Shown: positions 21,548 to 46,651, counted from the first letter of the stretch. The stretch is DNA of 64,000 nucleotides from Candidatus Kaiserbacteria bacterium (GCA_023264445.1 JAHFMN010000002.1:2365-66364), one strand, 5' to 3'. Notes: generated by a model from the letters alone, not told the origin. Translations and numbers: made by a program.

Positions 21548-21591
21548 TACAAAAAGAAAATCGGCCCAAGGATACAAGTATCCAAGGGCCG
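21548..21591 (-). terminator. Intrinsic terminator for gene 21611..22270: hairpin CGGCCCAAGGATAC-AA-GTATCCAAGGGCCG, then a T-run on the minus strand
   Basis: Two 6 bp stems with a 2-nt internal loop, followed by ATTTTCTTTTTG. Confidence 0.5.
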
Positions 21592-21610: not shown

Positions 21611-22270
21611 CTAGTTGCGAGGGAACACCCGATAACCGGCGCTCCAGTAGTAGTCGTCGCGCCCCCCCGCGTTCACGAACCAGTAGCCACTGTCGGCAAG
21701 CCAGAACACGTACACGACGAAGCCGGGCACGTAGAAGAGGTTGGCGTATCCGTTGTTCAGGAGTTCGCCATCCCTCCCTCCCCACTGCTTCTCGATCATC
21801 TGCGCGATGCGCGCACAGAGTTCGGACGGGTCCCACTCATACCCTTCGGGAAGTTCCGCCGTGATTTGGCTGTCCTTTGCGTTTTTGCGAAGGTCATAGG
21901 ACTTGCCGGTGCAGGCGTCGAGCTTCTCGACCGACTTCACGTTCGCAAGAATGCGTTCGTTGAATTCGCCCCAGATGTAGAGGCCGTCACGCGTCTGATA
22001 GAACGCGTGCGGGTCGTGAGGTTTGTCGAGCGCCGGATACTCCACCTGTCCATTCGCGAGAGCAAGTAAGGCGGGTTTCGGAACCATGGGAACATCGCCC
22101 AGTTTCGGGCAACCGGCTTTGAGGTAGGCCGCGAGATTGCGGCGCGCTTCGCGGTTATCCGTCACCGCCAAGAGTTCGGTGGTGACACCCTCCTTCGCCA
22201 TGACCCGTACAAATTTCGCGGTCGTGTCGAGGACGTTACTGATGGTTTCGAGGTGAGCGATGTTCGACAT
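21611..22270 (-). CDS. Hypothetical protein of 219 aa (start MSNIAHLETISNV). It is monocistronic with its own strong promoter, leader hairpin and terminator
   Basis: AGGAGG sits 7 nt upstream of the ATG; there is no recognisable family motif. Confidence 0.6.
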   Translation of the reverse strand: MSNIAHLETISNVLDTTAKFVRVMAKEGVTTELLAVTDNREARRNLAAYLKAGCPKLGDVPMVPKPALLALANGQVEYPALDKPHDPHAFYQTRDGLYIWGEFNERILANVKSVEKLDACTGKSYDLRKNAKDSQITAELPEGYEWDPSELCARIAQMIEKQWGGRDGELLNNGYANLFYVPGFVVYVFWLADSGYWFVNAGGRDDYYWSAGYRVFPRN

Positions 22271-22300
22271 CGTGTGCCTCCTAAGTAAAGAGCAACCCAT

Positions 22301-22368
22301 CCTGAATACGGGAATCCCGCACTCATTAGGTTGTTTATATTATATACTCAAATGACCTATCCTGTCAA
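22301..22368 (-). promoter_or_regulatory. Promoter plus conserved 5' leader module, copy A: -35 TTGACA (22363-22368), 18 nt spacer, -10 TATAAT (22339-22344). A leader hairpin UGAGUGCGGG-AUU-CCCGUAUUCA lies at 22303-22326
   Basis: Consensus hexamers; the 23-nt palindrome/hairpin starts about 10 nt after the predicted TSS; a near-identical module sits at 39501-39570. Confidence 0.55.
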
Positions 22369-22421
22369 GTCACCAAATGATCCTGTAGACACGGCTCAAA
22401 ATAGAACAAGGTTGAACCTTG

Positions 22422-23792
22422 TTAGGAGATGGAAGAGCGGATGCGGGTGGCGACTTCAGCAACAGTAAGGCGCTCTTGCTCGCCAGAATCACGATGGCGA
22501 AGGGTGACGGTGTCCGTGAGATTCGGCGTCTCGCCCAAGGTATCGAAGTCGATGGTGACGCAGAACGGCGTACCGATCTCGTCCTGGCGGCGATAGCGCT
22601 TGCCGATATTGCCATTATCGTCCCATGCGATAGCTGGGTGTATCTTCTGCAGCTCTTTACGCACCTCCTGCGCTTTCGCGACGAGCTCGGGTTTGTTTTT
22701 CAAAAGCGGCGAAACCATCGCTTTCACCGGTGCGATCTTCGGCGCAAGGGCGAGGTAGGAGCGCACTTCTCCGCCCATGTCATCTTCGCGATATGAGCTG
22801 GTAAGAATCGCAAGAATCGTGCGGTCCACGCCAAGAGACGGTTCGATAACGTGCGGAATAAATTTCTCCTTCGTCTCTTCATCAAGATAGGAAAGCGGAG
22901 TTCCAGAACCTTTTTCATGTGCCGAGAGGTCGAAGTCGGTGCGATAGGCGAGACCCCAGAGCTCTTTGCGGCCAAATGGGTATTCAAATTCAAAATCAAT
23001 CGTGCGTTTAGAGTAATGTGCGCGCTCTTCAGCAGGCACTTCAAGCTCATGGAGTGCGCTCGATGGTATTCCAACCGCTTCGGCAAACAGGTGCATCGCC
23101 TTGCGCCATTCCTCAAAGGCCTGCTCCCATGTATCGGGCTTTACGAAATACTCGACTTCCATCTGTTCGAGTTCACGCAGACGGAAGACGAAATCACGCG
23201 GAGCAATTTCGTTGCGGAACGCCTTCCCTATCTGCGCAATACCGAATGGAAGCTTCGGATGAAGCGAGTCAACAACATTTTTAAAGTTAGCGAAGATGCC
23301 GCCAGCCGTTTCCGGACGCAGATAGACCGTAGCCGACTCGTCCTCGGTGGCTCCCGCATGTGTCTTAAACATCATGTTAAATTGCCGAACTTCTCCAAGA
23401 GTGCCTTCTTTACCGCACGAAGGACAGACTTTATTTTCATTCACTATTTTTCCATTCTCATCTTTTTCATATTTAACTGGCACATGATCAGATCGGAAAC
23501 GACCTTTGCAATTATTGCACTCAACGAGAGGATCGGAAAATCCGGCGACATGGCCGGACGCTTCCCATACTTTCGGATTCATGAGTATTGCAGCATCAAC
23601 GCCATACATGTCGTCACGCGAATCACGGAACATCTGCAACCAGAGGCGTTCCACATTTTCCTTCAAGACAACACCGAGGGGCCCGTAGTCATAGGTGCCG
23701 GCGAGGCCGCCGTAAATCTCGGAGCCAGGGAAGACGAAGCCGCGGCGCTTACAGAGCGAGACAATTTTCTCCATCAACTGCTGATTAGCCAT
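22422..23792 (-). CDS. glyQS: Glycyl-tRNA synthetase (class II, alpha2 type)
   Basis: 456 aa; class II motifs; C-terminal anticodon-binding domain. Confidence 0.95.
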   Translation of the reverse strand: MANQQLMEKIVSLCKRRGFVFPGSEIYGGLAGTYDYGPLGVVLKENVERLWLQMFRDSRDDMYGVDAAILMNPKVWEASGHVAGFSDPLVECNNCKGRFRSDHVPVKYEKDENGKIVNENKVCPSCGKEGTLGEVRQFNMMFKTHAGATEDESATVYLRPETAGGIFANFKNVVDSLHPKLPFGIAQIGKAFRNEIAPRDFVFRLRELEQMEVEYFVKPDTWEQAFEEWRKAMHLFAEAVGIPSSALHELEVPAEERAHYSKRTIDFEFEYPFGRKELWGLAYRTDFDLSAHEKGSGTPLSYLDEETKEKFIPHVIEPSLGVDRTILAILTSSYREDDMGGEVRSYLALAPKIAPVKAMVSPLLKNKPELVAKAQEVRKELQKIHPAIAWDDNGNIGKRYRRQDEIGTPFCVTIDFDTLGETPNLTDTVTLRHRDSGEQERLTVAEVATRIRSSIS

Positions 23793-23885
23793 AGAGCGAT
23801 ATTACTGCCAAGCGAGCCGAGTGGCAAAGCATGTCCCCATGATTTGTCCGAGGCAAGCGCAGGAAGAAAGCTCGGTCATACGAGC

Positions 23886-25772
23886 TTATTGAACAGTAGC
23901 GTTAGTCGGGACATATCCTGGATCTCCCTTCGTTTCGGTCGTCACTGGATCGGCCGTCTCTGCTATCTGCACGCCAGCGAAGCGATCGTATCCTGAAAAA
24001 GTGACCGCACCGGTAAGTGGCGGCGCAGAACCTTTCTGCGAGGTGGACGGAGTGAATGAGACCTGGAAAAGCCCTTGTGTGCTCCCCGCTTGTGCGAGGT
24101 CGCCGATATCCCATGAGACAGAACGAGAGGTTCCATCATACGAGAAAGAGCCGCTACCGCCTGTGAGACCGGTATAGGAAACGTAGCCGGGCAATACCGT
24201 CGAGACCCTTCCCCCGGCCACCGCGCTTCCTTTGTTTTGAGCAGTCAGGACAATACTATATGTCGTCGCTTGATTGGCTTTAGGAGGAATAGGGCCGCTG
24301 TTTCCTATAGCTCCCGAACTATGCAGCGCTGCTGCTGAAAGCATGACTGAGGTCGCGACCTTCACGGTCTTGGCTGCAGAAGCATTCACCAATTCCGGCA
24401 CATTACTCTGGCCCACGCGAGTACCAGAGACAGAGATAGTGAAGGTGATTGATGGTGTGGTGGGAAGCATACTCGCTGGAAGGGTTGCGAAAGAAAACGA
24501 ACCGAAACCAGAAGCACCAGGCGCAAGCGAGGCAAGAGAGGAATCGGTGTCCCTGCTGAACACGACGGTATGATCGGAGGAGCGGTAGAAACCATTTGTC
24601 GTCTGTATGCTGTCATAATCAACCGCCGAACCAGAGAGTGCGATAGAGATTGTCGCATTTGTCACACTCGTTGAGAGCGTATTCGTATAGGAAAGGCTGA
24701 CGTTCTGAGGGCTCCCAGCAGTGACGACGGTGTTCGTGCCTGTATCCCCGTTAAGGGCAAGCGTCGTATTAATAAAAGGCGCTCTGATGGTAACCGTCGC
24801 ATCTTGTGTCATATAGGAGACGACGGGCGTCTGGTTCGTCGGCGTATCCGCGGTCCCGACTGTAAAGTGGAAAACGCGCTGCTCTTTATCTTGTCCCAAG
24901 AGCGTTCCAACAAGCGTCACTTCCTTGCTCGCACCGGGCGCGATAGTGCCGAGCAGAAAACTGGAATTATTCAGCGGGCGTGACGACGAGGTGACCGAAA
25001 AGCCAAATGGGAGCGTGCTTGCGAGAACGACGTTCTCGAGCGGTACTGTTGCATTAGAACGGACGGTGAGTGTAAAAGCGAGCGGTTTGCCGGAAATCGT
25101 TTCAGAGAGCGTCTCGACCGAAAGCGAAAGCGGCGTAGAAGAGATCGTCAGTGGATAGGAAGTTTTCTTTACAAAACCCGCATTGGAGCCGGTCGTACCG
25201 TAGGAAAATGTGACTGGCAGAGTGAGCGTTTGTCCGGCTCCGCCGAATATGATTGCCTTCAACGAACGAGTTATCGTCGCACCGCTTGCGAGCATGCCAA
25301 GATTCTCGGTGTAGCGCGGGTAGGTCTGCGAGATATCATCTGCACTGCGCGTGCCGCTTGGGAATTCAATCCCAATCGTCGCATTTTCAAGAGCAACCGG
25401 ATTCTTATTCGTTATGGTGAGTGATAGGGGGACGGTATCTCCTCCTGCGATTGTCGTCGGGCCTTGTATATCGATGGTGATCTTGTCTACCGAGACGGTG
25501 TTGCCGCCGGCAAAGAAGAAATAGCCGGCGGCAACAAGTGAAACGAGAAAGAACAGGAATGCAATGGTGAAAAATATACCGGCGAAATGAACGTGTCGCT
25601 CCCCATTTCGCGAGAATTGCTGAAATGATTCTCGCCACGTATGAGGTAGAAGGCGTGGGCCAGACTGTGCAAGTGGAGGATTTCCTCCCGATGAGGGGGC
25701 AACGGGCTCGTAGAGACGCTTTCGCGCCCGTTCAAGCGAGCCAGTATCATCTTCAGGAAGCGGCGGCATCAC
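23886..25772 (-). CDS. Large membrane-anchored surface protein of 628 aa with repeated beta-sandwich (CARDB/Ig-like) domains
   Basis: Single TM helix IFFTIAFLFFLVSLVAAGYFFF followed by a 550-aa Thr/Ser-rich ectodomain. Confidence 0.7.
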   Translation of the reverse strand: MMPPLPEDDTGSLERARKRLYEPVAPSSGGNPPLAQSGPRLLPHTWRESFQQFSRNGERHVHFAGIFFTIAFLFFLVSLVAAGYFFFAGGNTVSVDKITIDIQGPTTIAGGDTVPLSLTITNKNPVALENATIGIEFPSGTRSADDISQTYPRYTENLGMLASGATITRSLKAIIFGGAGQTLTLPVTFSYGTTGSNAGFVKKTSYPLTISSTPLSLSVETLSETISGKPLAFTLTVRSNATVPLENVVLASTLPFGFSVTSSSRPLNNSSFLLGTIAPGASKEVTLVGTLLGQDKEQRVFHFTVGTADTPTNQTPVVSYMTQDATVTIRAPFINTTLALNGDTGTNTVVTAGSPQNVSLSYTNTLSTSVTNATISIALSGSAVDYDSIQTTNGFYRSSDHTVVFSRDTDSSLASLAPGASGFGSFSFATLPASMLPTTPSITFTISVSGTRVGQSNVPELVNASAAKTVKVATSVMLSAAALHSSGAIGNSGPIPPKANQATTYSIVLTAQNKGSAVAGGRVSTVLPGYVSYTGLTGGSGSFSYDGTSRSVSWDIGDLAQAGSTQGLFQVSFTPSTSQKGSAPPLTGAVTFSGYDRFAGVQIAETADPVTTETKGDPGYVPTNATVQ

Positions 25773-25790: not shown

Positions 25791-26360
25791 TTAAAGGCCG
25801 GAAGTGGCAATGCCGTGATTGATGCGCGTAATGTATGCCGTGCGATCTTCTGCGACCGCAGCAAGTAGTGGAGGCGTGAACGCCGATGGTTCTCCTGGTA
25901 TGCCACCTACATCGAGCCCCAGTGCAGCAAGCGTGCGGAGTGCGGCGAGCATTTCAACGGCCTCGTGCTGCTCCTCAGGATGCTCCGAAAGCGCGGAAAA
26001 AAAGCCACTCATGATGGGAAAGAGTGTCGTGTCATGGGCTTCTCCGGCAACAAGGCGCAGCAAGAGTCCCGACACGCGCGCCGCCCGCTCTCGCGGCGGC
26101 GCGCTCTGCATGCGCTTGAACCAATTTTCTTCAAGCATGGCGCCGGCAAGCCGCCAGCCCTCCTTCCCGCGAACAAGCACGAGAGAACTTTCAGCAAAGG
26201 TAGTGAGAGCATGGGCGAGCTTCGCCCCGGAAGCCCGGAGGCCCTGCGCCCGAGCGCGCACGAGACCGAGCTCGGGCGTGAGCACCATGACAAATGCGTT
26301 CGCTTCTCCCAAAGGAGAACGGGAGAGCACGATACCGCGCGTCTCGTATTTATGGCGCAT
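25791..26360 (-). CDS. recO: DNA repair protein RecO
   Basis: N-terminal OB fold [28 protein letters not shown]. Confidence 0.75.
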
Positions 26361-29300
26361 TGCGAATGAGATTGAAGCGTACCGGACCGGTTGAGAGGGT
26401 CGCCGCATGCTTCCCTTCCGGAGCTATCTCCGTGCGCACCGTATCTCTGGGAGAGAATCCTTCGGCTTTGCGCGCATCCGCGACCGCGCGCGCCATCTCG
26501 CGCTCGTCTCCCTCCTTTATAAGCTCTGGCGTGAGAGCCGTGTCGAGCACAAGCTCTTTGCCTGCGATCACTTTTTTCACATTCATCTCTTCAGCGAGAA
26601 TGCCTGCCAGCTCGGTTGGCAGTTGCCCTGGAACCGTGAGCGAAGCGAGCGGTTGGCGCACCTTGATACCGGCCTTCTGCCGCAATTGGAGCGCTTCTGA
26701 TGCGAGCGCACGAACTTTCTTCATCTCTGCGAGCAGAGCTTCGTCTTTCCCTTTGCCGAACCAGCGCCGTTTTCGCTCCGGCCATGATGCAAGATGCACG
26801 CTCTCTGGAGCAGAAGCATCCTTTACCCTCGCGTACACATCCTCTGCAAGAAATGGCGCGAACGGAGCGAGAAGAAGCGCCGATGTATGAAGCGTGTCGC
26901 GGAGAGTCTCGAGAGCTGCTGCATCGCCTTCGCGCACGCGGTCGCGAATGCGCCGCACATACCATTGTGAAAGATCTTCAGTAAGCCCCGCAATCATACG
27001 CGTCGCCTCAAAGGGACGGTACCCGTCCATACTTTCGGTCATAACCGAGACAGCTTCCTGCACTCGCGCCCGCATCCATGTATCAATAACCGCCGGCTGC
27101 TTTTGCACAGGCGGAACATCTTTGAACAACTCATAGAACTTCGCGCTATTCTCGAGCCAAGAGAGCACTTTCGCCGCCTCCTTCACCGTTTTCTCGCCAT
27201 AATTCTTTGAGTCGCCCGGCTGGGTCACGCTATACATCCAGAACCGGAGCGTATCGACGCCCCACTTCTCCATCTCCACCCATGGGTCAACCACATTCCC
27301 TTTTGATTTGCTCATCTTCTGCCCTTCGGCATCGAGGAGGTGTCCGAGCGAAATCACATTTCTGAAAGAAGCGCCGCGGCCTGCAAGCGTTCCTACCGCG
27401 AGCAGCGTATAAAACCAGCCGCGCGTCTGGTCGATGGCCTCGCTGATGAAATCAGCCGGGTACGCGATCTTCTTCAGAAAGGCGCTCAGCGATTCGTTCC
27501 CGCGCTCGCGCGCCGCTTGTGCAAACGGCATTCCGCCGGAGTCAAACCATACGTCCATTACTTCCTTCACTCGGCGCAGTTTGGTCCCCTTTTCTGAAAC
27601 GAGCACCACATCATCGATATAGGGCCGATGCAGATCAAGCTCATAGTCCTCATTGTGTGGAAGAGGGAGGAAGTTAAGAGCGCGCTCCTCGGCAGGAGCA
27701 AGAGCGTCCCGTTCGATATGCCCGTGGCGCACGACCGCTTCGGGTATCGTCTCGCCAAGCGCGACTGACTGAAGCATGAAAGCGGGGGTCTCATGCGTCA
27801 CGAAGAGAATCTTCTCGCCCTGATACTGCTCCTCGCACTCGTACAGGAGCGCGCCGACACGGCGCTTGACCTCTACCCAGCTCTCACCTCCTTGTGGCGC
27901 AGACAAGCCTTTCGGCTGCGACGCTAAAAACCATTCATGATACGCGCGTATCGGTCCTTGATTGAAGATGCCGAGCCCAAGCTCTCGCAGGCGCGCATCA
28001 GCGGCTATGCTGTCGGACAGGCCACATTCTTGCGCGATAATCTCCGCCGTCCGGGTCGTCCGCCGCAAGGGCGAGTGGATGATGCGCGTGATGCCGAGAT
28101 GCTTAAGGCGCTTCGCAGTCGCTCGTGCATCATCCTCCCCTTTCTGGGTAAGATTTCCCGAAATCGAATCGTCGTCATTGAGTATCCTGCTTACGTTATT
28201 CTCCGTCTCTCCATGCCGCATCACGAAATACGCATTGCCGGATTTTTTCGTATGCTTTTTCAGGTCATCTATCGAATCAATAACGAGCTGTTCGCTTCCA
28301 TCAGTATTGCGCCAGATAGGTAGCGGCGTACCCCAATAGCGCTCGCGGCTTATCGCCCAGTCTTTCGCATTTGCGAGCCATTCGCCCATGCGCCCCTCGC
28401 GGATGTATTCCGGCTCCCAATGAATCTTCTTATTTTCAGAAACGAGCTTCACGCGCAGGTCGCTCATGCGGATGTACCACGAATCGCGCGCATAATAGAT
28501 GAGCCGCGTCTTGCACCGCCAGCAGAAGGGATAGGTGTGCGTATAGGATTCTTTCTTGAAAAGCAGATCGCGCGCCTGCAGGTCTTTCAGTATCTCAACC
28601 GACGTCTCCTCTTCAACGACAGACCTTCCGGCAAGAAAACCAGTTCCATCAATAAACTTCCCTTCAGGATTTACTAAATGCACTTTCGGCAGGCCAATAC
28701 TGTTCCCAAGTTCGAAATCTTCTTGGCCGTACATCATCGCGGTGTGTACGATGCCCGTACCATCTTCGGTCGTGACGAAATCCGCCGCATATACCTGAAA
28801 TGCTTTCTCAAACTTTGCCTTCTCGTTCTCTGACGCGAGATTCTTTGCAAAATCGTAGAGCGGCTTATATTTCTTGCCAACTAAATCTTTTCCTTTAACT
28901 TCTCTCTCGACACTAAAAGAAATCCCGGCATCGGAGAATCGTTCAAGAGCTGATTTTGCCAGAAGATACACACCAGAGTCAGCTTCATAATGGCCCGCAC
29001 CCGCCGCTTGTATTTGAGTCTTAAAAATTTTTGCTTTTACATAATCAATGTCCTTCCCCACTGCGAGTGCGATGTTGCCAGGAAGCGTCCATGGCGTCGT
29101 CGTCCACGCGAGCAGATAGGTACCCGGCTCATCTACGAGCTCAAACTTCGCAGTAATGGTGAGATCTTTGATGTCTTGGTATCCCTGCGCAAGCTCGTGC
29201 GAAGAGAGTGCCGTCCCGCAACGCGGACACCATGGCACGACCTTGTAATCCTTATAGAGCCGGCTGTCCTTTGCCGTCTGGGCAAAGAGGTGCCAGAGGA

Positions 29301-29769
29301 CTTCCATGTAGGAACTGTCAAAGGTGAAATACGCCTTAGTCTCATCGACCCAGTAGCCGATGCGCTTGGTAAACTTCGCCCATAAATCAATGTATGCAAA
29401 AACGCTCTCGCGGCACTTCTTATTGAAAGCGGCTATGCCGTATTTCTCGATGTCGGGCTTTCCTTTGAAACCAAGCTGTTTTTCGACTTCAAGCTCGACT
29501 GGAAGCCCGTGCGTGTCCCACCCCGCGCGGCGATTGACCCGATACCCGCGCATGGTCTTGTAGCGCGGAATGGCATCTTTAAATGCGCGTGCCTCAAGGT
29601 GGTGGATGCCCGGCTTTCCATTGGCCGTCGGCGGTCCTTCATAAAAGACGAATTCGCCTTTGGGGGACTTTTTCGTGAGTGATTTCTCAAAGATGCGCTC
29701 GCGCTCCCAAAACGCCAGAATCGCTTCTTCGCGCTTCGCCGCTTCTGACTTCTCTGGAACATCAGCCAT
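26350..29769 (-). CDS. ileS: Isoleucyl-tRNA synthetase of 1139 aa carrying an inserted histidine-phosphatase (PGAM-like) domain of about 200 aa between the WGTPLPIW and DVWFDSG segments
   Basis: HIGH-like [10 protein letters not shown]1 editing domain, KMSKS. The insert carries RHGETENN and LFVTHE motifs. Start taken at [12 protein letters not shown]. Confidence 0.93.
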
Positions 29770-29857
29770 ATCTCTCGTATCGTAGCGTTTACCGGGCAAA
29801 AATGGAAACGGCGGCCCAGGAGAGAATCCCTGTGACCGCCGTTGTGGCGTTGTGTCG

Positions 29858-30163
29858 CTATGCGACCCGGAGCGCCGGATGGAATCGCCGATATCGCTCA
29901 CGGTGCGAACGGGCGCGGATCGCCGTTCGACGGGCGATTGCCCGCTCGTATAGCCCCCTCGCATACTTCAGGACATAGTCCGGAATCTTGCGGAGATTCA
30001 CGACGACTTTCCGGACGATGTTCTCACCCCGCTGCATACGCAGAGCATTCTCGAAGCTGGTTGCTTCCTCGAACAATTCCTTGATTGTCCACGAGCGAAA
30101 GCGTGCAGCCCGATAGATGATCTCGATGTGAGAGGATGTCCTGCGACGGTTCTTATTTGCCAT
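29858..30163 (-). CDS. Small basic hypothetical protein of 101 aa with an Arg-rich C-terminal tail
   Basis: GGAGGA sits 3-4 nt upstream of the ATG; it lies between argS and ileS. Confidence 0.45.
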
Positions 30164-30327
30164 TACTCCTCCATAGCAGTCGCGACCGACGACATGTACG
30201 GTCTGCGAAAGAATCTAGCGCACTCTCAGCTTACCCGCAACCTACTGCCAAGCGAGCCGAGCGACAAATGAAGTCCCTACTTTATTTGTCCGAGGCAAGT
30301 ACAGAGAGAAAGCTTTGTCTTCAAAGC

Positions 30328-31974
30328 TTACATCCTTTCAGGCGTGGGGACACCGAGAAGCGTGAGACCGTTCGTCATGGTCTGCACGAACGCGCGGGCG
30401 ACAATCAGTTTATGCGCCTCGTGATCGCCGCCGATGATGCGTTCCTTCGCATAAAAAGAATTCCACTGTCCTGCAAGCTCGGTCAGATAGGTCACGAGGA
30501 GATTCGGGGTAAGCTCCCGTGCGGCGCGTGCGGCTACTTCAGGGAAATGCAACATGACTCGTTCTATATCGTACGGTTCGGCAGGTATATCACCCTTTCC
30601 CTTTTCTCCTGCTTGAGCGAGCACAGAGGCCGCCCGCACAAGCGCGTACTGGAGGTACGGTCCAGAATCACCCTCAAGCGAAAGTGACTTCTCTTCGTCA
30701 AAGACGATATCCGATCCCGGGGCCTGGCGCAGAATCATGTACTTGATCGCACCGATTGCCACCTGCTCGGCGATAAGCGGATCTGGATTCTTCTCACTGG
30801 CCCTTGTGATGATGTCTCGGATAAATTCGGCGGCGGCAATGACATTCCCTTCGCGCGAAGACATCTTCCCCGAGGCAAGCTTTAGAAAACCGGTAGAGAC
30901 ATGAACCGTTTTCTCGGCAAGAACTGGCGCGATGTCGGAAAGCGCTGCGAGTACGGTCCTGAAACGTCCTGTCTGTTCATTCCCAGTAATAACGACTGCC
31001 TGGTCTGACGGCCATCGCTCCTCCTTCAGGAATGCAAGTCCTATATCTTTTGCTTCATACGTCGGCGTATCATGCGAGGTGATGAATACCATCGTATGCA
31101 CGCCTTTCTTCTCTCCGTTGTAGATGATGGCACCATCGCTTTTTTCAAATATCCCTTTTTGCAACCCATCCATCACGATGCGCACGCCGGCTTCAGTCGT
31201 ATCGCTGTCAAAGAATTCAAAATCGAAATGCGTCCCGAGCAATTTCCAGATGCGGCGGAACTCTTCCATAGAAACGTCTCGTCCTTTCCGCCACAATTCC
31301 ATGAGTGCGTGGTCAGTACCCGCATACATCGCCTGATTGAGCGCGTCTATCTCTTCCTTCGCGTTCGGATCAGTCTCATAGGCGCGCGAACCTTCGGTAT
31401 ATGCCGCACCGATTTCTTGAGCGGTCGTCGGATCATCAATGCCGTTTTTTCGCAGTCCCCAGAGCGCCTTCGCGACGTTCGGACCGATATCTCCGCCGAA
31501 GGTATCGCGCGCCACCGTTGCACCGGAATTCTGTATGAGACGTGAGAGTGCCTCGCCTACGACCGTACCGACAAGATGACCGATATGCATCTCCTTGAAT
31601 GCATTCGGATTTGAATATTCGACGAGGATGCGTTTCGCGGTATTCCCGCCACCTTTCCCCCAGTCCGGTCCCTTCGCATCGGCCTCGGCAACCATAAAAT
31701 TGACCGCATCGCGCGCAAGCAGAATATTTATGAAGCCCGGTCCGGCGACTTCTATTCTTGAAACATGATCGCGAAGAGATTCTCGGAGTGCGTGCGCAAG
31801 CTCGTCAGCGAGCTCACGCGGATTCTTACCAAGTGATTTTGCTGCTGCAAGCGCGGCATTCGTCGCATAATCTCCATGTGCTATATCCCCGGGCCGTTCA
31901 ACGACGAACGCGACGGTATCGGCACCCATACGCACCAAAATATCCTTGATGGACTGCCGGATTTGCTCCTCCAT
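30328..31974 (-). CDS. argS: Arginyl-tRNA synthetase
   Basis: HIGH-like PNAFKEMHIGH and KMSS motifs; start taken at MEEQIRQSIKD. Confidence 0.93.
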   Translation of the reverse strand: MEEQIRQSIKDILVRMGADTVAFVVERPGDIAHGDYATNAALAAAKSLGKNPRELADELAHALRESLRDHVSRIEVAGPGFINILLARDAVNFMVAEADAKGPDWGKGGGNTAKRILVEYSNPNAFKEMHIGHLVGTVVGEALSRLIQNSGATVARDTFGGDIGPNVAKALWGLRKNGIDDPTTAQEIGAAYTEGSRAYETDPNAKEEIDALNQAMYAGTDHALMELWRKGRDVSMEEFRRIWKLLGTHFDFEFFDSDTTEAGVRIVMDGLQKGIFEKSDGAIIYNGEKKGVHTMVFITSHDTPTYEAKDIGLAFLKEERWPSDQAVVITGNEQTGRFRTVLAALSDIAPVLAEKTVHVSTGFLKLASGKMSSREGNVIAAAEFIRDIITRASEKNPDPLIAEQVAIGAIKYMILRQAPGSDIVFDEEKSLSLEGDSGPYLQYALVRAASVLAQAGEKGKGDIPAEPYDIERVMLHFPEVAARAARELTPNLLVTYLTELAGQWNSFYAKERIIGGDHEAHKLIVARAFVQTMTNGLTLLGVPTPERM

Positions 31975-38515: not shown

Positions 38516-38701
38516 TTACGCGCTGGCAATCTGGCTCACTACCAAGCCGAAGAGGTAATCAAGAAGACCAACGAGAAGGGCGATAGCAATCGCGATGAAA
38601 ATGACGACAAGCGTATGCGAGAGTGCTGTCCGATTGCTCGGCCAGACAATGTGAGTGAACTCTTCGCGCACATGTTTCAGATAGCTGAATGGCGAGGTCA
38701 T
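38516..38701 (-). CDS. secE: Preprotein translocase subunit SecE, 61 aa
   Basis: Single TM helix; immediately upstream of nusG; start taken at MTSPFSYL. Confidence 0.75.
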   Translation of the reverse strand: MTSPFSYLKHVREEFTHIVWPSNRTALSHTLVVIFIAIAIALLVGLLDYLFGLVVSQIASA

Positions 38702-38723
38702 GACAGATGTCGCATTACTAAAT

Positions 38724-38780
38724 AAAAAAGCCCTGCGGGCTTCGATAGCGCCAGTATAGCAGAACGCCAAAACGCGTCAA
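38724..38780 (-). promoter_or_regulatory. Putative secE-nusG-rplK promoter: -35 TTGACG (38775-38780), 16 nt spacer, -10 TATACT (38753-38758). A terminator-like hairpin AAGCCC-GCA-GGGCUU plus U6 follows in the 5' UTR at 38724-38744
   Basis: Good hexamers; the hairpin with its U-run lies between the predicted TSS and the secE ATG. Confidence 0.4.
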
Positions 38781-38796
38781 CACCTTTACTCTAAAG

Positions 38797-38832
38797 TAAA
38801 CAAAAAGCCCCCAATGCCGAAGCAAAGGGGGT
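38797..38832 (-). terminator. Intrinsic terminator for gene 38884..39480: CCCCC-14 nt loop-GGGGG followed by CTTTTTGTTT
   Basis: GC stem followed by a T-run on the minus strand. Confidence 0.5.
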
Positions 38833-38883
38833 AGGCCGGGAGAGCCAAAGTTCCCAAGGGCCAAAGTGCAAAAATCCGAAGAC

Positions 38884-39480
38884 CTAAGCCCCAGAGACCT
38901 TGCGAACGGCGAGGAAGCGACAACCCACACTCCAGCCGCTGCCGAACCATAGGAGGTCGAGGTCACACTCGGAATCGCTCCGAGGGAGGTACGGCACGCT
39001 GCGATTGCCACGGACCTCCGCGACCGAGCCTAGGCCGATGATTGGGAACTTGCGCTGTTCGTCGGGGTATTTCTCCCCGAAGCAGAGCAGGTGCTCGATT
39101 CTTGCCGGTTCCCAGCCCGCTTTCTTCATCGCTTCAATCGCTTTCTCCGAGGAGATGTTGTGGTTGAAGTGGAAGTAGCGGCTCTCGAACTCCACCATGT
39201 CCTCCCCTTCGAGCGGGAAGCGCTTCGCTGTGATGTCGCTGTTCTTCCAGTCGTAGCGACCGGCGGCGATCATCTCTTCGAGGGAACGGTCGTAGTCGAT
39301 GGTGAGGGGGATGGTGAGGGGGAAGGTGTTGGGGGTGGGCGTGACGTGCTCAAATGGATTCTTCCGCTGATTGAATAGTGCGAGTTCGTCGAGAGTGATA
39401 CCTCCCTTGCGGATTTTGCATGCAAGGTCTTCCCACAATCCAGCCAAGCGTTCGCCCGGCAAAGTCACGGCGTTAGCCAT
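38884..39480 (-). CDS. Hypothetical protein of 198 aa, monocistronic, carrying the same promoter-leader module as gene 21611..22270
   Basis: Full-length ORF; CAGGAG Shine-Dalgarno sequence; own terminator. Confidence 0.6.
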   Translation of the reverse strand: MANAVTLPGERLAGLWEDLACKIRKGGITLDELALFNQRKNPFEHVTPTPNTFPLTIPLTIDYDRSLEEMIAAGRYDWKNSDITAKRFPLEGEDMVEFESRYFHFNHNISSEKAIEAMKKAGWEPARIEHLLCFGEKYPDEQRKFPIIGLGSVAEVRGNRSVPYLPRSDSECDLDLLWFGSGWSVGCRFLAVRKVSGA

Positions 39481-39500
39481 GTGTTTCTCCTGTAATGAGC

Positions 39501-39570
39501 TATCCTGAATGCGGGGAATCCCGCACTCATTAGCTTTTTCAATAATACACCTAATAACCTATATTGTCAA
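39501..39570 (-). promoter_or_regulatory. Promoter plus conserved 5' leader module, copy B: -35 TTGACA (39565-39570), 17 nt spacer, -10 TATTAT (39542-39547). Leader hairpin UGAGUGCGGG-AUU-CCCCGCAUUCA at 39505-39528. An extra partial half-site CCCGTGAATACGGG lies at 39583-39596
   Basis: About 34 nt of the leader are near-identical to copy A, with a compensatory-like U to C change in the stem. Confidence 0.55.
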
Positions 39571-39624
39571 TGGATAGAAAAGCCCGTGAATACGGGATTT
39601 TCTGACATTATTTCAAGACTCTCG

Positions 39625-41168: not shown

Positions 41169-41358
41169 ACGCGCATACTATCACGAGTGAAAGAATCGGG
41201 GCGGCTATCGGGAATCGGCTACAACTCTCACCTCGCCGTCGCTTCGGTTCGGTCGCAGCCCCGCCTCACCATCTCGCCTGCTGGCTCGATATGGCTGTGG
41301 CATTCGATTCCCTGCCCGTGCATGCACGGGCTAGCTGCCAAAACGAGCTTGTGAGTTT

Positions 41359-41431
41359 GGGCGGCTATCGGGAATCGAACCCGAATTGAGAGCTCCACAA
41401 GCTCCAGTGTTAACCGTTACACCATAGCCGC
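41359..41431 (-). tRNA. tRNA-His (anticodon GUG) with an encoded G-1
   Basis: Manual cloverleaf: GCGGCUA acceptor with an extra 5' G opposite the C73 discriminator; anticodon loop UUGUGGA. Confidence 0.85.
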
Positions 41432-42345: not shown

Positions 42346-42499
42346 TGTGCGAAGGAGCTCGGTCAGGAATAATTTGCTCGCCGTCGCTCGCAAATTTTCA
42401 CGACCCTGCCTCGCGGTTTCGCCTGCTGACGAAACATCGCTCCGGCATTCGAGTCCTCTCACACAAAGCGCGCAGGCGCTTTGCTCTGCGTACAAAATG

Positions 42500-42530: not shown

Positions 42531-42614
42531 TGCGCAGGAGAGGACTCGAACCTCCAATCCCTTGCGGGAGCTACCACCTCAAGGTAGTGCGTCTACCAAT
42601 TTCGCCACCTGCGC
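42531..42614 (-). tRNA. tRNA-Leu (anticodon GAG), type II with a long variable arm
   Basis: Manual cloverleaf, 84 nt, anticodon loop UUGAGGU. Confidence 0.85.
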
Positions 42615-44901: not shown

Positions 44902-45099
44902 ATGTTCCCGAAAGCGACAGATATCATAGCGGCGAGCGTGTTCGCGCTGATAGCATCATGCATCTTCGGCTTCGTCATCGCGGCCATCATTCAGCCATGG
45001 GTTGGCTTGAAGACCGGTTGGATCGTTTCATTTCTCGTGCTTCTCTGTATATCTGAATTGCCAATCATCGGCATATGGGTACGGGATCGGTTTTTCTAG
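44902..45099 (+). CDS. Small membrane protein, 65 aa, two TM helices
   Basis: AGGAGG Shine-Dalgarno 5 nt upstream; hydrophobic. Confidence 0.45.
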   Translation: MFPKATDIIAASVFALIASCIFGFVIAAIIQPWVGLKTGWIVSFLVLLCISELPIIGIWVRDRFF

Positions 45100-45136
45100 C
45101 GGCGCATACTTCTGCAAGTATGCGCCGCTTCACTAT

Positions 45137-45310
45137 AGTGCACCGTATCGAGGCACATCTCGAACTTTTCCTAAGAGAGCCAAGAGGTGCGTCCATAAAC
45201 AAGTGGGGAGAGCTTGCTCTGAGTGCATGAGCTATCGCGGCCTGGCGAAGAAGATCATGCGTGGTCTGGATGAGAACCATGATGAAAATACCCAGCTTGA
45301 CTGAATAATT
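45137..45310. repeat. Repeat R1 copy a, about 150-170 bp. The first 75 nt are about 96% identical to copy b at 45836-45990, and the 5' edge resembles the tRNA-Arg 3' end (tGGTGCaCCG)
   Basis: Pairwise alignment by eye. Confidence 0.7.
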
Positions 45311-45357
45311 ATGGGTTGTAAGGTGCAGAGAGAAGTTCCCCACGCCACAACCTAAGG

Positions 45358-45636
45358 GTGAATCACATGGACAAAGAAGATAAAGAGTTGGTACTGGAGT
45401 TCTGTCGTGAAATGAAGGAGTTGATGGCAACAAAAACGGATCTCGGAGCACTGGCGAAGAAAGAGGACATAAGAAGCCTGGGCGCCACTCTGGATCGCAT
45501 GATGTTGGAGAGGCATATAACAATAAGACGTATGCCTCCCGAAAATCCACCTACCGCGTGGCCGTCGAATCCATGGAGAAATGACGTGTTTCGCGCAGTA
45601 CGAGCTGGTTCAGTATCAGGCCCGCGCTACCGCTAA
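45358..45636 (+). CDS. Cassette ORF X1, about 90 aa, with a coiled-coil-like N-terminus (start GTG 45358 or ATG 45367)
   Basis: Followed by a strong terminator; unique sequence flanked by conserved blocks. Confidence 0.4.
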   Translation: MNHMDKEDKELVLEFCREMKELMATKTDLGALAKKEDIRSLGATLDRMMLERHITIRRMPPENPPTAWPSNPWRNDVFRAVRAGSVSGPRYR

Positions 45637-45658
45637 TGAGAAAGTTGAAAATGAGCCT

Positions 45659-45688
45659 GAAGGCCACGAATGTGGCCTTTGCTTTTCG
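45659..45688 (+). terminator. Intrinsic terminator: AAGGCCACG-AA-TGTGGCCTT followed by TGCTTTTC
   Basis: 9 bp stem. Confidence 0.6.
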
Positions 45689-45689
45689 C

Positions 45690-45835
45690 AAGAGTTCGAT
45701 TCCTGTGCGGGTTGAGCTCATCCGTGTCTCGTCTGGCAGGATGTCACGTCATTTGGAGAAAAGGAAAACGGCTCGTAGGTAAGCCGTTTTCCTTTGGATG
45801 TGGGGGAAATGTGCCTGTGTGGCACGTTTCCACTC
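45690..45835. repeat. Repeat R3 copy a, about 150 bp. It is homologous to 46425-46576 and contains an 11-bp inverted repeat GGAAAACGGCT/AGCCGTTTTCC and a GTGCC...GGCAC hairpin
   Basis: Alignment by eye; a 1-nt indel argues for a noncoding function. Confidence 0.7.
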
Positions 45836-45990
45836 CTGGTGCACCGTATCGAGGCACAACTCGAACTTTTCCTAAGAGAGCTAAGAGGTGCGTCCATAAA
45901 CAAGTGAGGAGAGCGTGCCCTCGTTGCGCGAATTACCGCGGCTTGGCGAAAGAGATCATACATGGCCTCGGCGACTTGACTGAAGAGGCA
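45836..45990. repeat. Repeat R1 copy b; begins cctGGTGCACCG
   Basis: See R1a. Confidence 0.7.
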
Positions 45991-46083
45991 GGAGTTGTAG
46001 AGTAGTGAAAGAACCCCTTTCTTTCCTTGTCAGCAAGAAGTCCGCATATCCGATGTGAATTTCTACTGATGAAGGAGACAGGC

Positions 46084-46377
46084 ATGGGTGCAACGGAAGT
46101 AAAAAACGAGTCATCGACTGTACCGCGATATGTCGTGGAGAATCCCCGAGTGCGGTTTGGAACTCTTCAAGAACCCGTCTTGTTCAAACTTTGCAATCCA
46201 AGCCGCAACGAGAATGGGAGGATTTATCTGAAGTTCTGGAGGGGGCGTTGGCCGATGGGTGTATGTTTGGGAGAGGATGGTAACCCTGTCCAATCTTGTT
46301 CATCGAATGACGGGACTCTCATAGCGCCAACACCCCTCACCTGGGTAGTTGTCGTTAAGAAGCACACCGTGGAATAA
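46084..46377 (+). CDS. Cassette ORF X2, 97 aa (MGATEVKNESS...), a beta-rich small protein
   Basis: AAGGAGA Shine-Dalgarno 6 nt upstream; followed by a strong terminator. Confidence 0.45.
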   Translation: MGATEVKNESSTVPRYVVENPRVRFGTLQEPVLFKLCNPSRNENGRIYLKFWRGRWPMGVCLGEDGNPVQSCSSNDGTLIAPTPLTWVVVVKKHTVE

Positions 46378-46397
46378 CTGGGGCACGCTGTGAATCT

Positions 46398-46424
46398 GAG
46401 GCCACGAACGTGGCCTCTTTTCTA
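46398..46424 (+). terminator. Intrinsic terminator: GAGGCCACG-AA-CGTGGCCTC followed by TTTTCTATTC
   Basis: Perfect 9 bp stem. Confidence 0.6.
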
Positions 46425-46576
46425 TTCAAAAAGTTCGATTCCTGTGTGGGTTGAGCTCATCCATGTCTCGCCTGGCACGATTTCGTACCACTGGAGAAAG
46501 GAAAAGTGGCTTACAGGTAAGGCGCTTTTCCTCTTGATGACGTGAGAATGTGCCTACCTGGCACATTCTCTAATCC
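46425..46576. repeat. Repeat R3 copy b, directly abutting the 3' end of tRNA-Arg(TCT)
   Basis: See R3a; stems preserved with U-G / C-G substitutions. Confidence 0.7.
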
Positions 46577-46651
46577 TGGTGCCCCGAGCTGGAATCGAAC
46601 CAACATCAACGGCTTAGAAGTCCGCTGCACTATCCATTGTGCTATCGGGGC
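46577..46651 (-). tRNA. tRNA-Arg (anticodon UCU) with an encoded CCA
   Basis: Manual cloverleaf, 75 nt; anticodon loop CUUCUAA; A31-G39 mismatch. Confidence 0.8.

Follow-up and report, generated by a model that had tools for sequence, protein, structure and literature searches.

A conserved 5′ leader stem-loop before genes of two DGR variable-protein families in Patescibacteria

INTRODUCTION

Several bacterial mRNAs carry a stabilising stem-loop at their very 5′ end, the classical cases being the 5′ UTR hairpin of Escherichia coli ompA and the leaders of Bacillus subtilis aprE and ermC. Diversity-generating retroelements (DGRs), for their part, are abundant in CPR/Patescibacteria, and the variable proteins found there are small and signal-peptide-less. 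Structured RNAs have also been met with in the neighbourhood of retroelement genes: the RNA motifs RT-1 to RT-19 lie near reverse-transcriptase genes and are held in Rfam (Weinberg et al. 2017, PMC5737381).

The locus described here touches on all of these. It lies in a 64-kb stretch of DNA, the whole of which was analysed and is called the window, and it consists of two nearly identical promoter-plus-leader modules, copies A and B, heading genes that are called A and B after them. By its homologs the window is placed in Patescibacteria, near Candidatus Kaiserbacteria, and so belongs to an uncultivated, ultra-small bacterium. A structured 5′ leader is of a well-known general kind; the short motif of the window, a long counterpart of it in relatives and the exclusive association of both with DGR variable-protein genes seem to be new to the literature. 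In the papers that we consulted nothing relevant was found on leader RNAs before DGR targets or on CPR-specific RNA motifs.

TWO COPIES OF A PROMOTER-LEADER MODULE

The starting point was a sequence-only reading of this DNA, in which a promoter plus 5′ leader hairpin was seen to recur 17 kb away, each copy before a monocistronic gene. The two copies are as described, and both are on the minus strand (Table 1). The likeness between them begins with the −35 hexamer and ends at the ribosome-binding site, ~100 nt in all; outside it, flanks and coding sequences are unrelated. Their common core is CTAATGAGTGCGGGATT(C)CCCG(Y)ATTCAGGAT, with one inserted C and one T/C change being the differences. The promoter had been called a textbook one, which holds in every position for copy A (TTGACA-18-TATAAT, 12/12), with copy B deviating a little from it (11/12, 17-nt spacer, TATTAT). 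The 23-nt palindrome placed about 10 nt after the transcription start is likewise real, but the structure is larger than the palindrome: an outer stem of 5–7 bp encloses it, and the whole starts at about +1. Terminators of their own had been ascribed to both genes, and terminator-like hairpins are there for A as for B, that of gene A having escaped a simple terminator scanner because its stem has an internal mismatch.

The element is not a dispersed repeat. The exact 16-mer core occurs at two sites only in the window, and a scan of the entire window with covariance model R1, its filters switched off, recovers just these two (59.2 bits for copy B and 53.2 for copy A), the next match being at 12 bits; the count rises to six, and no further, when the search is widened to 504 kb. 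Nor do the two genes belong to one duplicated segment: the flanks do not align and the proteins are without similarity, which speaks against a segmental duplication. The window holds, besides, another pair of intergenic modules, ~81% identical to each other.

The U-rich box of copy A, between hairpin and Shine-Dalgarno, is present also in leaders of homologs, those of the short and of the long type alike. In copy B the corresponding box, GCUCAUU, overlaps the 3′ arm of the outer stem. An in-frame upstream ATG at 22300 was considered as the start of gene A and set aside, as it is out of frame in an ortholog (L203) and a Shine-Dalgarno precedes 22270.

Table 1. Features of the two modules and their genes in the 64-kb window (positions counted from its first nucleotide)
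Feature	Coordinates	Strand	Details
Gene A	21611..22270	(-)	219 aa; assigned to a Patescibacteria DGR variable-protein family; variable region ~21613-21733
Gene B	38884..39480	(-)	198 aa; assigned to a large Patescibacteria DGR variable-protein family; variable region ~38902-39030
Copy A promoter	22339..22368	(-)	-35 TTGACA 22368-22363; 18-nt spacer; -10 TATAAT 22344-22339; consensus scan 12/12
Copy B promoter	39542..39570	(-)	-35 TTGACA 39570-39565; 17-nt spacer; -10 TATTAT 39547-39542; consensus scan 11/12
Copy A predicted transcription start	~22332	(-)	predicted, as the position 7 nt past the -10 hexamer
Copy B predicted transcription start	~39535	(-)	predicted
Copy A leader stem-loop	22293..22333	(-)	outer stem CAACCUA/UGGGUUG; internal loop A(U)/(A)GGA; inner stem UGAGUGCGGG/CCCGUAUUCA; loop AUU
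Copy B leader stem-loop	39498..39535	(-)	outer stem AGCUA/UAGCU; internal loop A(U)/(A)GGA; inner stem UGAGUGCGGG/CCCGCAUUCA; loop AUUC
Copy A match to model R1	22293-22335	(-)	
Copy B match to model R1	39496-39539	(-)	
Copy A box, Shine-Dalgarno and start	22277..22293	(-)	U-rich box GCUCUUU 22293-22287; AGGAGG 22282-22277; ATG 22270; from the sequence
Copy B box, Shine-Dalgarno and start	39487..39500	(-)	box GCUCAUU 39500-39494; AGGAG 39491-39487; ATG 39480; from the sequence
Gene A terminator-like hairpin	21551..21590	(-)	imperfect, GGCCCTTGGATAC..GTATCCTTGGGCC, then a T-run; read from the sequence
Gene B terminator-like hairpins	38807..38895	(-)	38895-38875 and 38823-38807, a T-run after each; terminator scan

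THE DOWNSTREAM GENES AS DGR TARGETS

The two genes had been regarded as unrelated and hypothetical. Proteins A and B are indeed devoid of sequence similarity to each other, and neither has a Pfam family match, yet comparison with their homologs tells us that both belong to DGR variable-protein families. The alignments of the two families have hypervariable C-termini in which conserved and hypervariable positions alternate in the manner typical of DGR variable regions. The loci of homologs yielded eight VR/TR pairs, most with a reverse transcriptase (RT) and/or Avd adjoining. In the six that were measured, the mismatches at TR adenines number 21/21 (L116), 16/16 (L117), 25/25 (L121) and 21/21 (L178) for the B family and 22/23 (L202) and 19/21 (L199) for the A family. 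In L116 and L117 a 129-nt repeat of the B homolog's own 3′ end is followed by an RT gene, with bAvd also there in L117. For the A family, VR, TR, bAvd and RT are together in L202, and VR and TR in L199. In 33 homolog loci an RT follows ~1.4 kb after the start of the target, and the target genes in full DGR cassettes have a terminator-like hairpin of their own.

The window genes themselves can be set against the TRs of relatives. The VR of gene A differs from the heterologous TR of L199 at 17/32 A sites (53%) as against 13/89 other sites (15%), and the VR of gene B differs from the heterologous TR of L117 at 20/31 A sites (65%) as against 15/98 others (15%). Structure predictions give weak, consistent C-type-lectin/FGE-like matches, the Treponema variable protein TvpA being among those for A. 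Some members of the A and B families have an N-terminal module in common.

RT, Avd and TR were all searched for in the 64-kb window and none was found, nor was any paralog of gene A or B. A comparison is offered by L166, where the syntenic SIMPL...nusG interval reads leader-B-TR-RT. The same interval of the window has leader-B only, with RT absent between gene B and nusG. Since the window has neither RT nor Avd nor TR, and the syntenic interval of L166 has a TR-RT, genes A and B are here stand-alone DGR targets, and would be either fossils or dependent on an element in another part of the genome.

Why should genes without similarity have the same leader? The reason, we suggest, is that both have the role of a DGR variable-protein gene.

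SHORT AND LONG LEADERS IN RELATIVES

The upstream regions were read in 80 metagenomic loci with B homologs and in assembly loci for A and B homologs. Most homolog loci have a longer leader, the short architecture of the window being in the minority. Short leaders are present in L203, before an A ortholog of 65% identity (CCCUAAUGGAUGCGGGUUCCCGUAUUCAGGAUAGG), in L120/L121, before a B ortholog of 65% identity (GGCUAAUAAACGCAGAGUUCCUGCGUUUAGGAUAGCU), and in L133 and L178 (GCUGAUGGG...CCUCAGGACAGCU). In 504 kb, including the window and ~440 kb of flanking DNA of relatives, model R1 picks out the six known copies only, and all six short leaders are directly upstream of A- or B-family genes. Complete, active-looking DGR cassettes are also headed by short leaders, as in L121 and L178, each with a VR/TR pair and an RT adjoining.

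The long leader has the same type of promoter and, near +1, a GYUCWUU(G)A box, followed by a conserved 20-bp hairpin, UCGCCAYAGC...GCURUGGCGA, and by other segments that are conserved as well. Applied to 33 sequences (alignment A8), RNAalifold gives compensatory changes in 12/20 pairs of this hairpin. A model of it, R2, has ~55 sense-strand matches in the 504 kb. Those whose position was checked all immediately precede an A- or B-family gene, and in the tandem pair of L197 there is a match before both genes. Model R1 detects none of the long leaders, and in the window the long type is absent both by regex and by model R2. What short and long leaders have in common is the promoter type, the GYUCWUU(G)A box and the gene families downstream, each type occurring before both families. 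What separates them is the hairpin, which in the long type has 20 bp and follows the box, and in the short type is smaller, different and before the box. In some long leaders there is an additional small hairpin, CGGAUWCCCG, similar to the apex of the hairpin in the window, CGGGAUUCCCG. A third leader variant is seen in L129, L141 and L164, and a leader type with a Shine-Dalgarno-sequestering hairpin in L126, L149 and L182. The notion of a regulon peculiar to one genome thus gives way to a broader picture, the short leader being one of at least two leader architectures before these families across Patescibacteria.

How did two genes of one genome come to have nearly the same stem? That in copies A and B and in L203 it is near-identical is best explained, from the sequences compared, by recent common ancestry of the cassette in this lineage. 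A metagenome scan for TGAGTGCGGGATTCCCN{2,3}ATTCA gave no matches, so that the exact stem sequence appears confined to close relatives. A looser pattern, GAGTGCGGGAN{1,5}CCCGYAYTC, when scanned against a genome collection found 111 stretches; these come from unrelated phyla, are chance GC-rich palindromes without the conserved flanks, and were discarded. Gene conversion, looked for as similarity of promoter spacers, was likewise dropped, identities being 7–12/18 for all pairs with no excess for A versus B.

A FOLD CONSERVED IN RNA

The short leader is predicted to form an extended stem-loop of ~40 nt, with an outer stem of 5–7 bp, an inner stem of 8–10 bp and a loop of 3–6 nt; in the two window copies the inner stem has 9–10 bp and the loop 3–4 nt. 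Between the stems is an asymmetric and conserved internal loop, 5′ AU / 3′ AGGA, and 3′ of the hairpin come in order a U-rich box GCUCWUU, the Shine-Dalgarno and the start codon. Minimum free energies are −26.4 kcal/mol for copy A (z = −3.7 versus shuffles) and −22.3 kcal/mol for copy B (z = −3.8). Already these two differ within their stems, a C-G pair of the outer stem being swapped for G-C and a G·U of the inner stem being G-C in the other copy.

Alignment A7 takes this further with six leaders, namely the two of the window and one each from four other assemblies (L203, L120, L133 and L178). In it 96.2% of cells pair, 8/13 pairs have two-sided changes and G·U accounts for 11/78 cells. The covariation score of 0.687 is to be compared with 0.299 in shuffles, 0/500 of which reach the observed value, and with at most 0.22 for slid partners. 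The six leaders represent only ~4–5 lineages, and as three of them (copies A and B and L203) have nearly the same stem sequence, independent compensatory events are fewer than the counts of cells suggest. Across lineages the inner stem is fully rewritten; what stays constant is AU and AGGA, both unpaired, together with the closing pairs GCUr/yAGC. In 6/6 leaders the outer stem begins 7–8 nt past the −10 hexamer, which is +1/+2 of the predicted transcript. As DNA the palindrome of the window is imperfect because two of its pairs are G·U, and model R1 distinguishes the strands, giving copy B 59.2 bits in the sense and 10.9 bits in the antisense direction.

Comparative analysis thus shows the predicted fold of the short leader to be conserved at the RNA level and to be strand-specific. 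On these grounds the element is one that acts as RNA and not as a DNA operator. The sequence-only reading had offered a small co-regulated set with either an operator or a riboregulatory leader. It is the latter option that is strengthened, covariation, G·U pairs and strand specificity all pointing to RNA, and the common operator that falls away, stem sequences changing completely between lineages with pairing kept.

Foldings give no clear sign that the hairpin sequesters or frees the Shine-Dalgarno. Three further candidates were tried and rejected. The GYUCWUU box was considered as an anti-Shine-Dalgarno element, and such pairing is predicted in 5/23 long leaders and not at all in window copy B. 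A leader peptide from the AUG in CUAAUGAG would have A and B frames diverging after 6 codons, L120 is without an AUG there, and no Shine-Dalgarno precedes it. As to a kink-turn, the strand opposite AGGA in the internal loop offers only AU, so there are no tandem G·A pairs.

WHAT THE LEADER MAY DO

The mechanism to which we give slightly more credence than doubt, largely by analogy, combines a sigma-70-type promoter with a structured leader whose 5′-terminal stem-loop would protect the mRNA, dock a trans-acting factor and co-regulate variable-protein genes. Going by the predicted start, the first base of the stem-loop would be nucleotide 1 or 2 of the transcript. There the stem-loop may shield the 5′ end from 5′-end-dependent decay in the way of the ompA, aprE and ermC leaders, and genes for RNase J are present in relatives. 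The purine-rich AU/AGGA internal loop, near the ribosome-binding site, would be the place where a trans-acting RNA-binding factor docks. By way of that factor otherwise unrelated variable-protein genes could be co-regulated post-transcriptionally, at the level of stability or of translation. Docking is added to protection because a generic stabiliser would have no need of an invariant loop and invariant closing pairs, nor of confinement to two families. Protection of the 5′ end cannot be the function common to both leader types, since the long leaders begin not with a 5′ hairpin but with an apparently single-stranded box. A bolder proposal, put forward tentatively and with a good deal more doubt than conviction, is that short and long leaders together constitute a dedicated RNA-sensor system, responsive to a ligand or a protein, for timing variable-protein production by the DGR targets of Patescibacteria.

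Several other readings deserve to be weighed against docking and co-regulation. The hairpin might be just a generic 5′ stabiliser, or a neutral passenger copied along with a strong promoter between variable-protein genes, with no trans factor and no regulation. Recent copying would fit a stem that is near-identical in window A, window B and L203 and entirely different in L120, L133 and L178, and the second, ~81% identical pair of intergenic modules in the window suggests that duplication of promoter regions is not unusual. What makes this reading rather unlikely to us is that the AU/AGGA loop and the GCUr/yAGC closing pairs have been kept across lineages with fully covaried stems, and that the motif is limited to two DGR-target families despite the ~440 kb of relatives' flanking DNA that was searched. 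The conserved internal loop could alternatively be that of a very small riboswitch, binding a metabolite or ion and shifting the balance between the outer stem and a pairing in which the U-rich box engages the Shine-Dalgarno. In B-type copies the GCUCWUU box does overlap the outer stem in its 3′ arm, and a weak pairing of box and Shine-Dalgarno appears in the minimum-free-energy folds of L203, L133, L178 and window A. But that pairing is missing from window B and from all except those few long leaders noted above, and the conserved unpaired nucleotides number just ~6, with no pseudoknot or multi-stem junction. Neither Rfam, where no family matches even at E = 10, nor the downstream genes, which give no metabolic clue, lend the idea anything, and we consider it improbable.

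A GGA-binding dimer of the CsrA/RsmA type, repressing by spanning the internal-loop AGGA and, 14–24 nt downstream, the Shine-Dalgarno GGA, would be a more specific version of a trans-acting protein. The second GGA in the Shine-Dalgarno is at a spacing inside the known working range, and UUCAGGAUG of copy A matches the core of the CsrA SELEX consensus. It is nonetheless very unlikely, as no CsrA homolog was found in the 64-kb window, the GGA occupies an internal and not a hairpin loop, and the variants of L129, L141 and L164 lack AGGA at this position. Hairpin and U-rich box may also call to mind a weak intrinsic terminator with regulated read-through, that is, a transcription attenuator, all the more as in window A (UUGCUCUUUACUU) and L203 (CUCUUUCUUU) the hairpin runs straight into U-rich sequence, and a scanner picks out, at 22312-22296, a sub-hairpin that looks like a terminator. 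The main hairpin itself, however, drew no such call; the base of its stem is AU-rich, and the same box stands at the 5′ end of long leaders, far from any hairpin. Since copy B has no U-tract, its tail being U-poor (CAUUACAGG), the short leader is not a terminator, and attenuation strikes us as highly improbable. Scarcely tenable at all is a DNA operator, in which a dimeric repressor at a palindrome just downstream of the promoter would block RNA polymerase. A 23-nt near-palindrome at +7 to +30 is in a typical operator position and is common to both genes, but its mismatches, two in copy A and one in copy B, are G·U in the RNA and A·C on the other strand, and its conserved nucleotides are asymmetric, AU facing AGGA. 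The stems of L120, L133 and L178 are unlike those of the window with pairing kept, the reverse of what would be expected of a protein-DNA site. The operator reading fails because it is pairing and not sequence that is conserved, with 11/78 cells being G·U and the antisense strand scoring 11 bits against 59 for the sense.

IMPLICATIONS

A leader that stands before two sequence-unrelated families of variable proteins, and before nothing else in the 504 kb searched, points to a shared layer of post-transcriptional control. For annotation, the immediate consequence is that two 'hypothetical' genes of the window can be reclassified as DGR targets. More widely, models R1 and R2 provide motifs with which variable-protein genes can be catalogued. 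Among these would be the stand-alone targets, which DGR finders miss because there is no reverse transcriptase nearby. In addition, work with reporters, probing or pull-downs can start from a defined element, the leader. Should the proposal of a dedicated RNA-sensor system turn out to be true, it would give a first regulatory handle on the role of hypervariable proteins in ultra-small symbiotic bacteria.

COMPARISON WITH KNOWN SYSTEMS

One close parallel is with the ompA, aprE and ermC stabilisers. As in these, a stable stem-loop is at the (predicted) 5′ end with almost no unpaired nucleotides before it, and is separate from, and upstream of, the Shine-Dalgarno. The short leader departs from them in its conserved internal loop and closing pairs, in its restriction to two families, and in having as an alternative a long leader without an initial hairpin. 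The MS2 coat-protein operator, ribosomal-protein leaders and the GGA sites of CsrA resemble it in another respect, that of a small hairpin with conserved unpaired purines near the ribosome-binding site in a set of genes. They differ from it in that the short-leader hairpin contains neither Shine-Dalgarno nor start codon, and there is no CsrA gene in the window.

With RT-1 to RT-19 the leaders have in common that they are candidate structured RNAs near retroelement genes, found by comparative genomics; the difference is that neither leader type matches anything in Rfam 15. At the gathering threshold of that release the window yields only tRNAs, and three long-leader loci (L114, L116 and L117) nothing. 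With E up to 10 both leader types give noise only.

It is the cis elements of DGRs themselves, namely the IMH, the hairpin/cruciform downstream of the VR and the TR-spacer RNA bound by RT-Avd, that match the short leader in being specific to DGR target genes. Those elements are at the 3′ end of the target or beside the TR and act in retrohoming. The short leader, by contrast, is in the 5′ UTR, ~500–550 nt upstream of the VR, and unlike them it persists on targets that, as in the window, have no TR or RT close by.

Leader types before A- and B-family genes

Some 55 genes of the A and B families, the variable-protein targets of diversity-generating retroelements (DGRs) to which genes A and B belong, are headed in relatives by what we term the long-type leader RNA, and where placement was checked within the 504 kb searched it headed no other genes. 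The box GYUCWUU(G)A is followed by a 20-bp hairpin, UCGCCAYAGC...GCURUGGCGA, 12 pairs of which covary, and the leader has further conserved segments, AAGGUAGCCCUCUAGCA being one of them. Rfam 15 holds no family for it. Besides this leader and the short type, the architecture with an AU/AGGA internal loop found in the window, B-family genes are headed by two more types. One, at L126, L149 and L182, is a long hairpin with the Shine-Dalgarno sequence within its 3' arm (CCUCGGUUGCUG...CAGCAACGGAGG); the other, at L129, L141 and L164, is a short-type variant that has the apex GGGAUACYC and lacks the AGGA loop.

Start codon of gene A

The internal loop of the copy A leader (AGGAUGG) contains an ATG in frame with gene A, and the longer open reading frame obtained mechanically is a result of it. 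As a start codon this ATG was rejected: it is without a Shine-Dalgarno sequence and the matching upstream ATG of the L203 ortholog is out of frame, for which reasons translation of gene A likely begins at 22270.

Other repeats and modules in the window

The terminator of the SIMPL gene (CCCGTATTCACGGG), just upstream of copy B, has a 10-mer, CCCGTATTCA, in common with the 3' arm of the copy A leader hairpin; this could be chance, or in read-through transcripts the 10-mer could serve as an alternative partner for pairing. The window also has another pair of intergenic modules that resemble each other (81% identity over ~110 nt), each with a terminator hairpin and a promoter-like region; one precedes the glycyl-tRNA synthetase gene and the other a 1204-aa gene. 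Two copies of a 53-nt repeat (74% identity) adjoin two tRNA genes; the repeat may represent a flanking sequence that the tRNAs have in common, or an element for their processing. Elsewhere an ORF-poor stretch between tRNA genes comprises two tandem units of ~700 nt each, 85-89% identical over the initial ~170 nt and the final ~140 nt with middles that are unlike, the conserved 3' part including a segment resembling a tRNA 3' half (GAGTTCGATTCCTGTGCGGGTTGA). Rfam returned nothing there beyond the neighbouring tRNA, and the units may be remains of integrated elements.

Positions of features in the window and at homologue loci (L)
Feature	Position	Strand
Long-type leader, examples among L114-L206	L175:4649-4761; L117:9880-9984; L202:1854-1962	
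ATG in copy A leader	22298-22300	
Mechanical ORF of gene A	21611-22300	
SIMPL gene terminator	39583-39596	-
Intergenic module pair	23780-23910 and 30220-30350	-
1204-aa gene	26350-29964	
53-nt repeat	41259-41311; 42404-42456	
tRNA gene	41360-41431	-
tRNA gene	42531-42614	-
Tandem units	45065-46650	
SIMPL-B-nusG, TR and RT	L166:5561-7743	
SIMPL-B-nusG, window	38530-38884	
RT remnant	L200:6578-6766	
Glycyl-tRNA synthetase site	L154:160-342; 22405-22423; upstream flanks of L119, L206, L123	

Retroelement loss and cassette exchange

At the SIMPL-B-nusG locus of L166 a template repeat (TR) and reverse transcriptase (RT) stand between gene B and nusG, whereas the syntenic interval of the window has neither; at L200 just a 63-aa RT remnant is kept after the A-family gene. 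Loss of the retroelement while target gene and leader stay seems common. The target genes themselves appear to be cassettes exchangeable at fixed sites: in relatives the glycyl-tRNA synthetase gene, with its AACAAGGTTSAACCTTG terminator, is followed immediately by a B-family gene with the long leader, and the window, at the same position, has instead an A-family gene with the short one.
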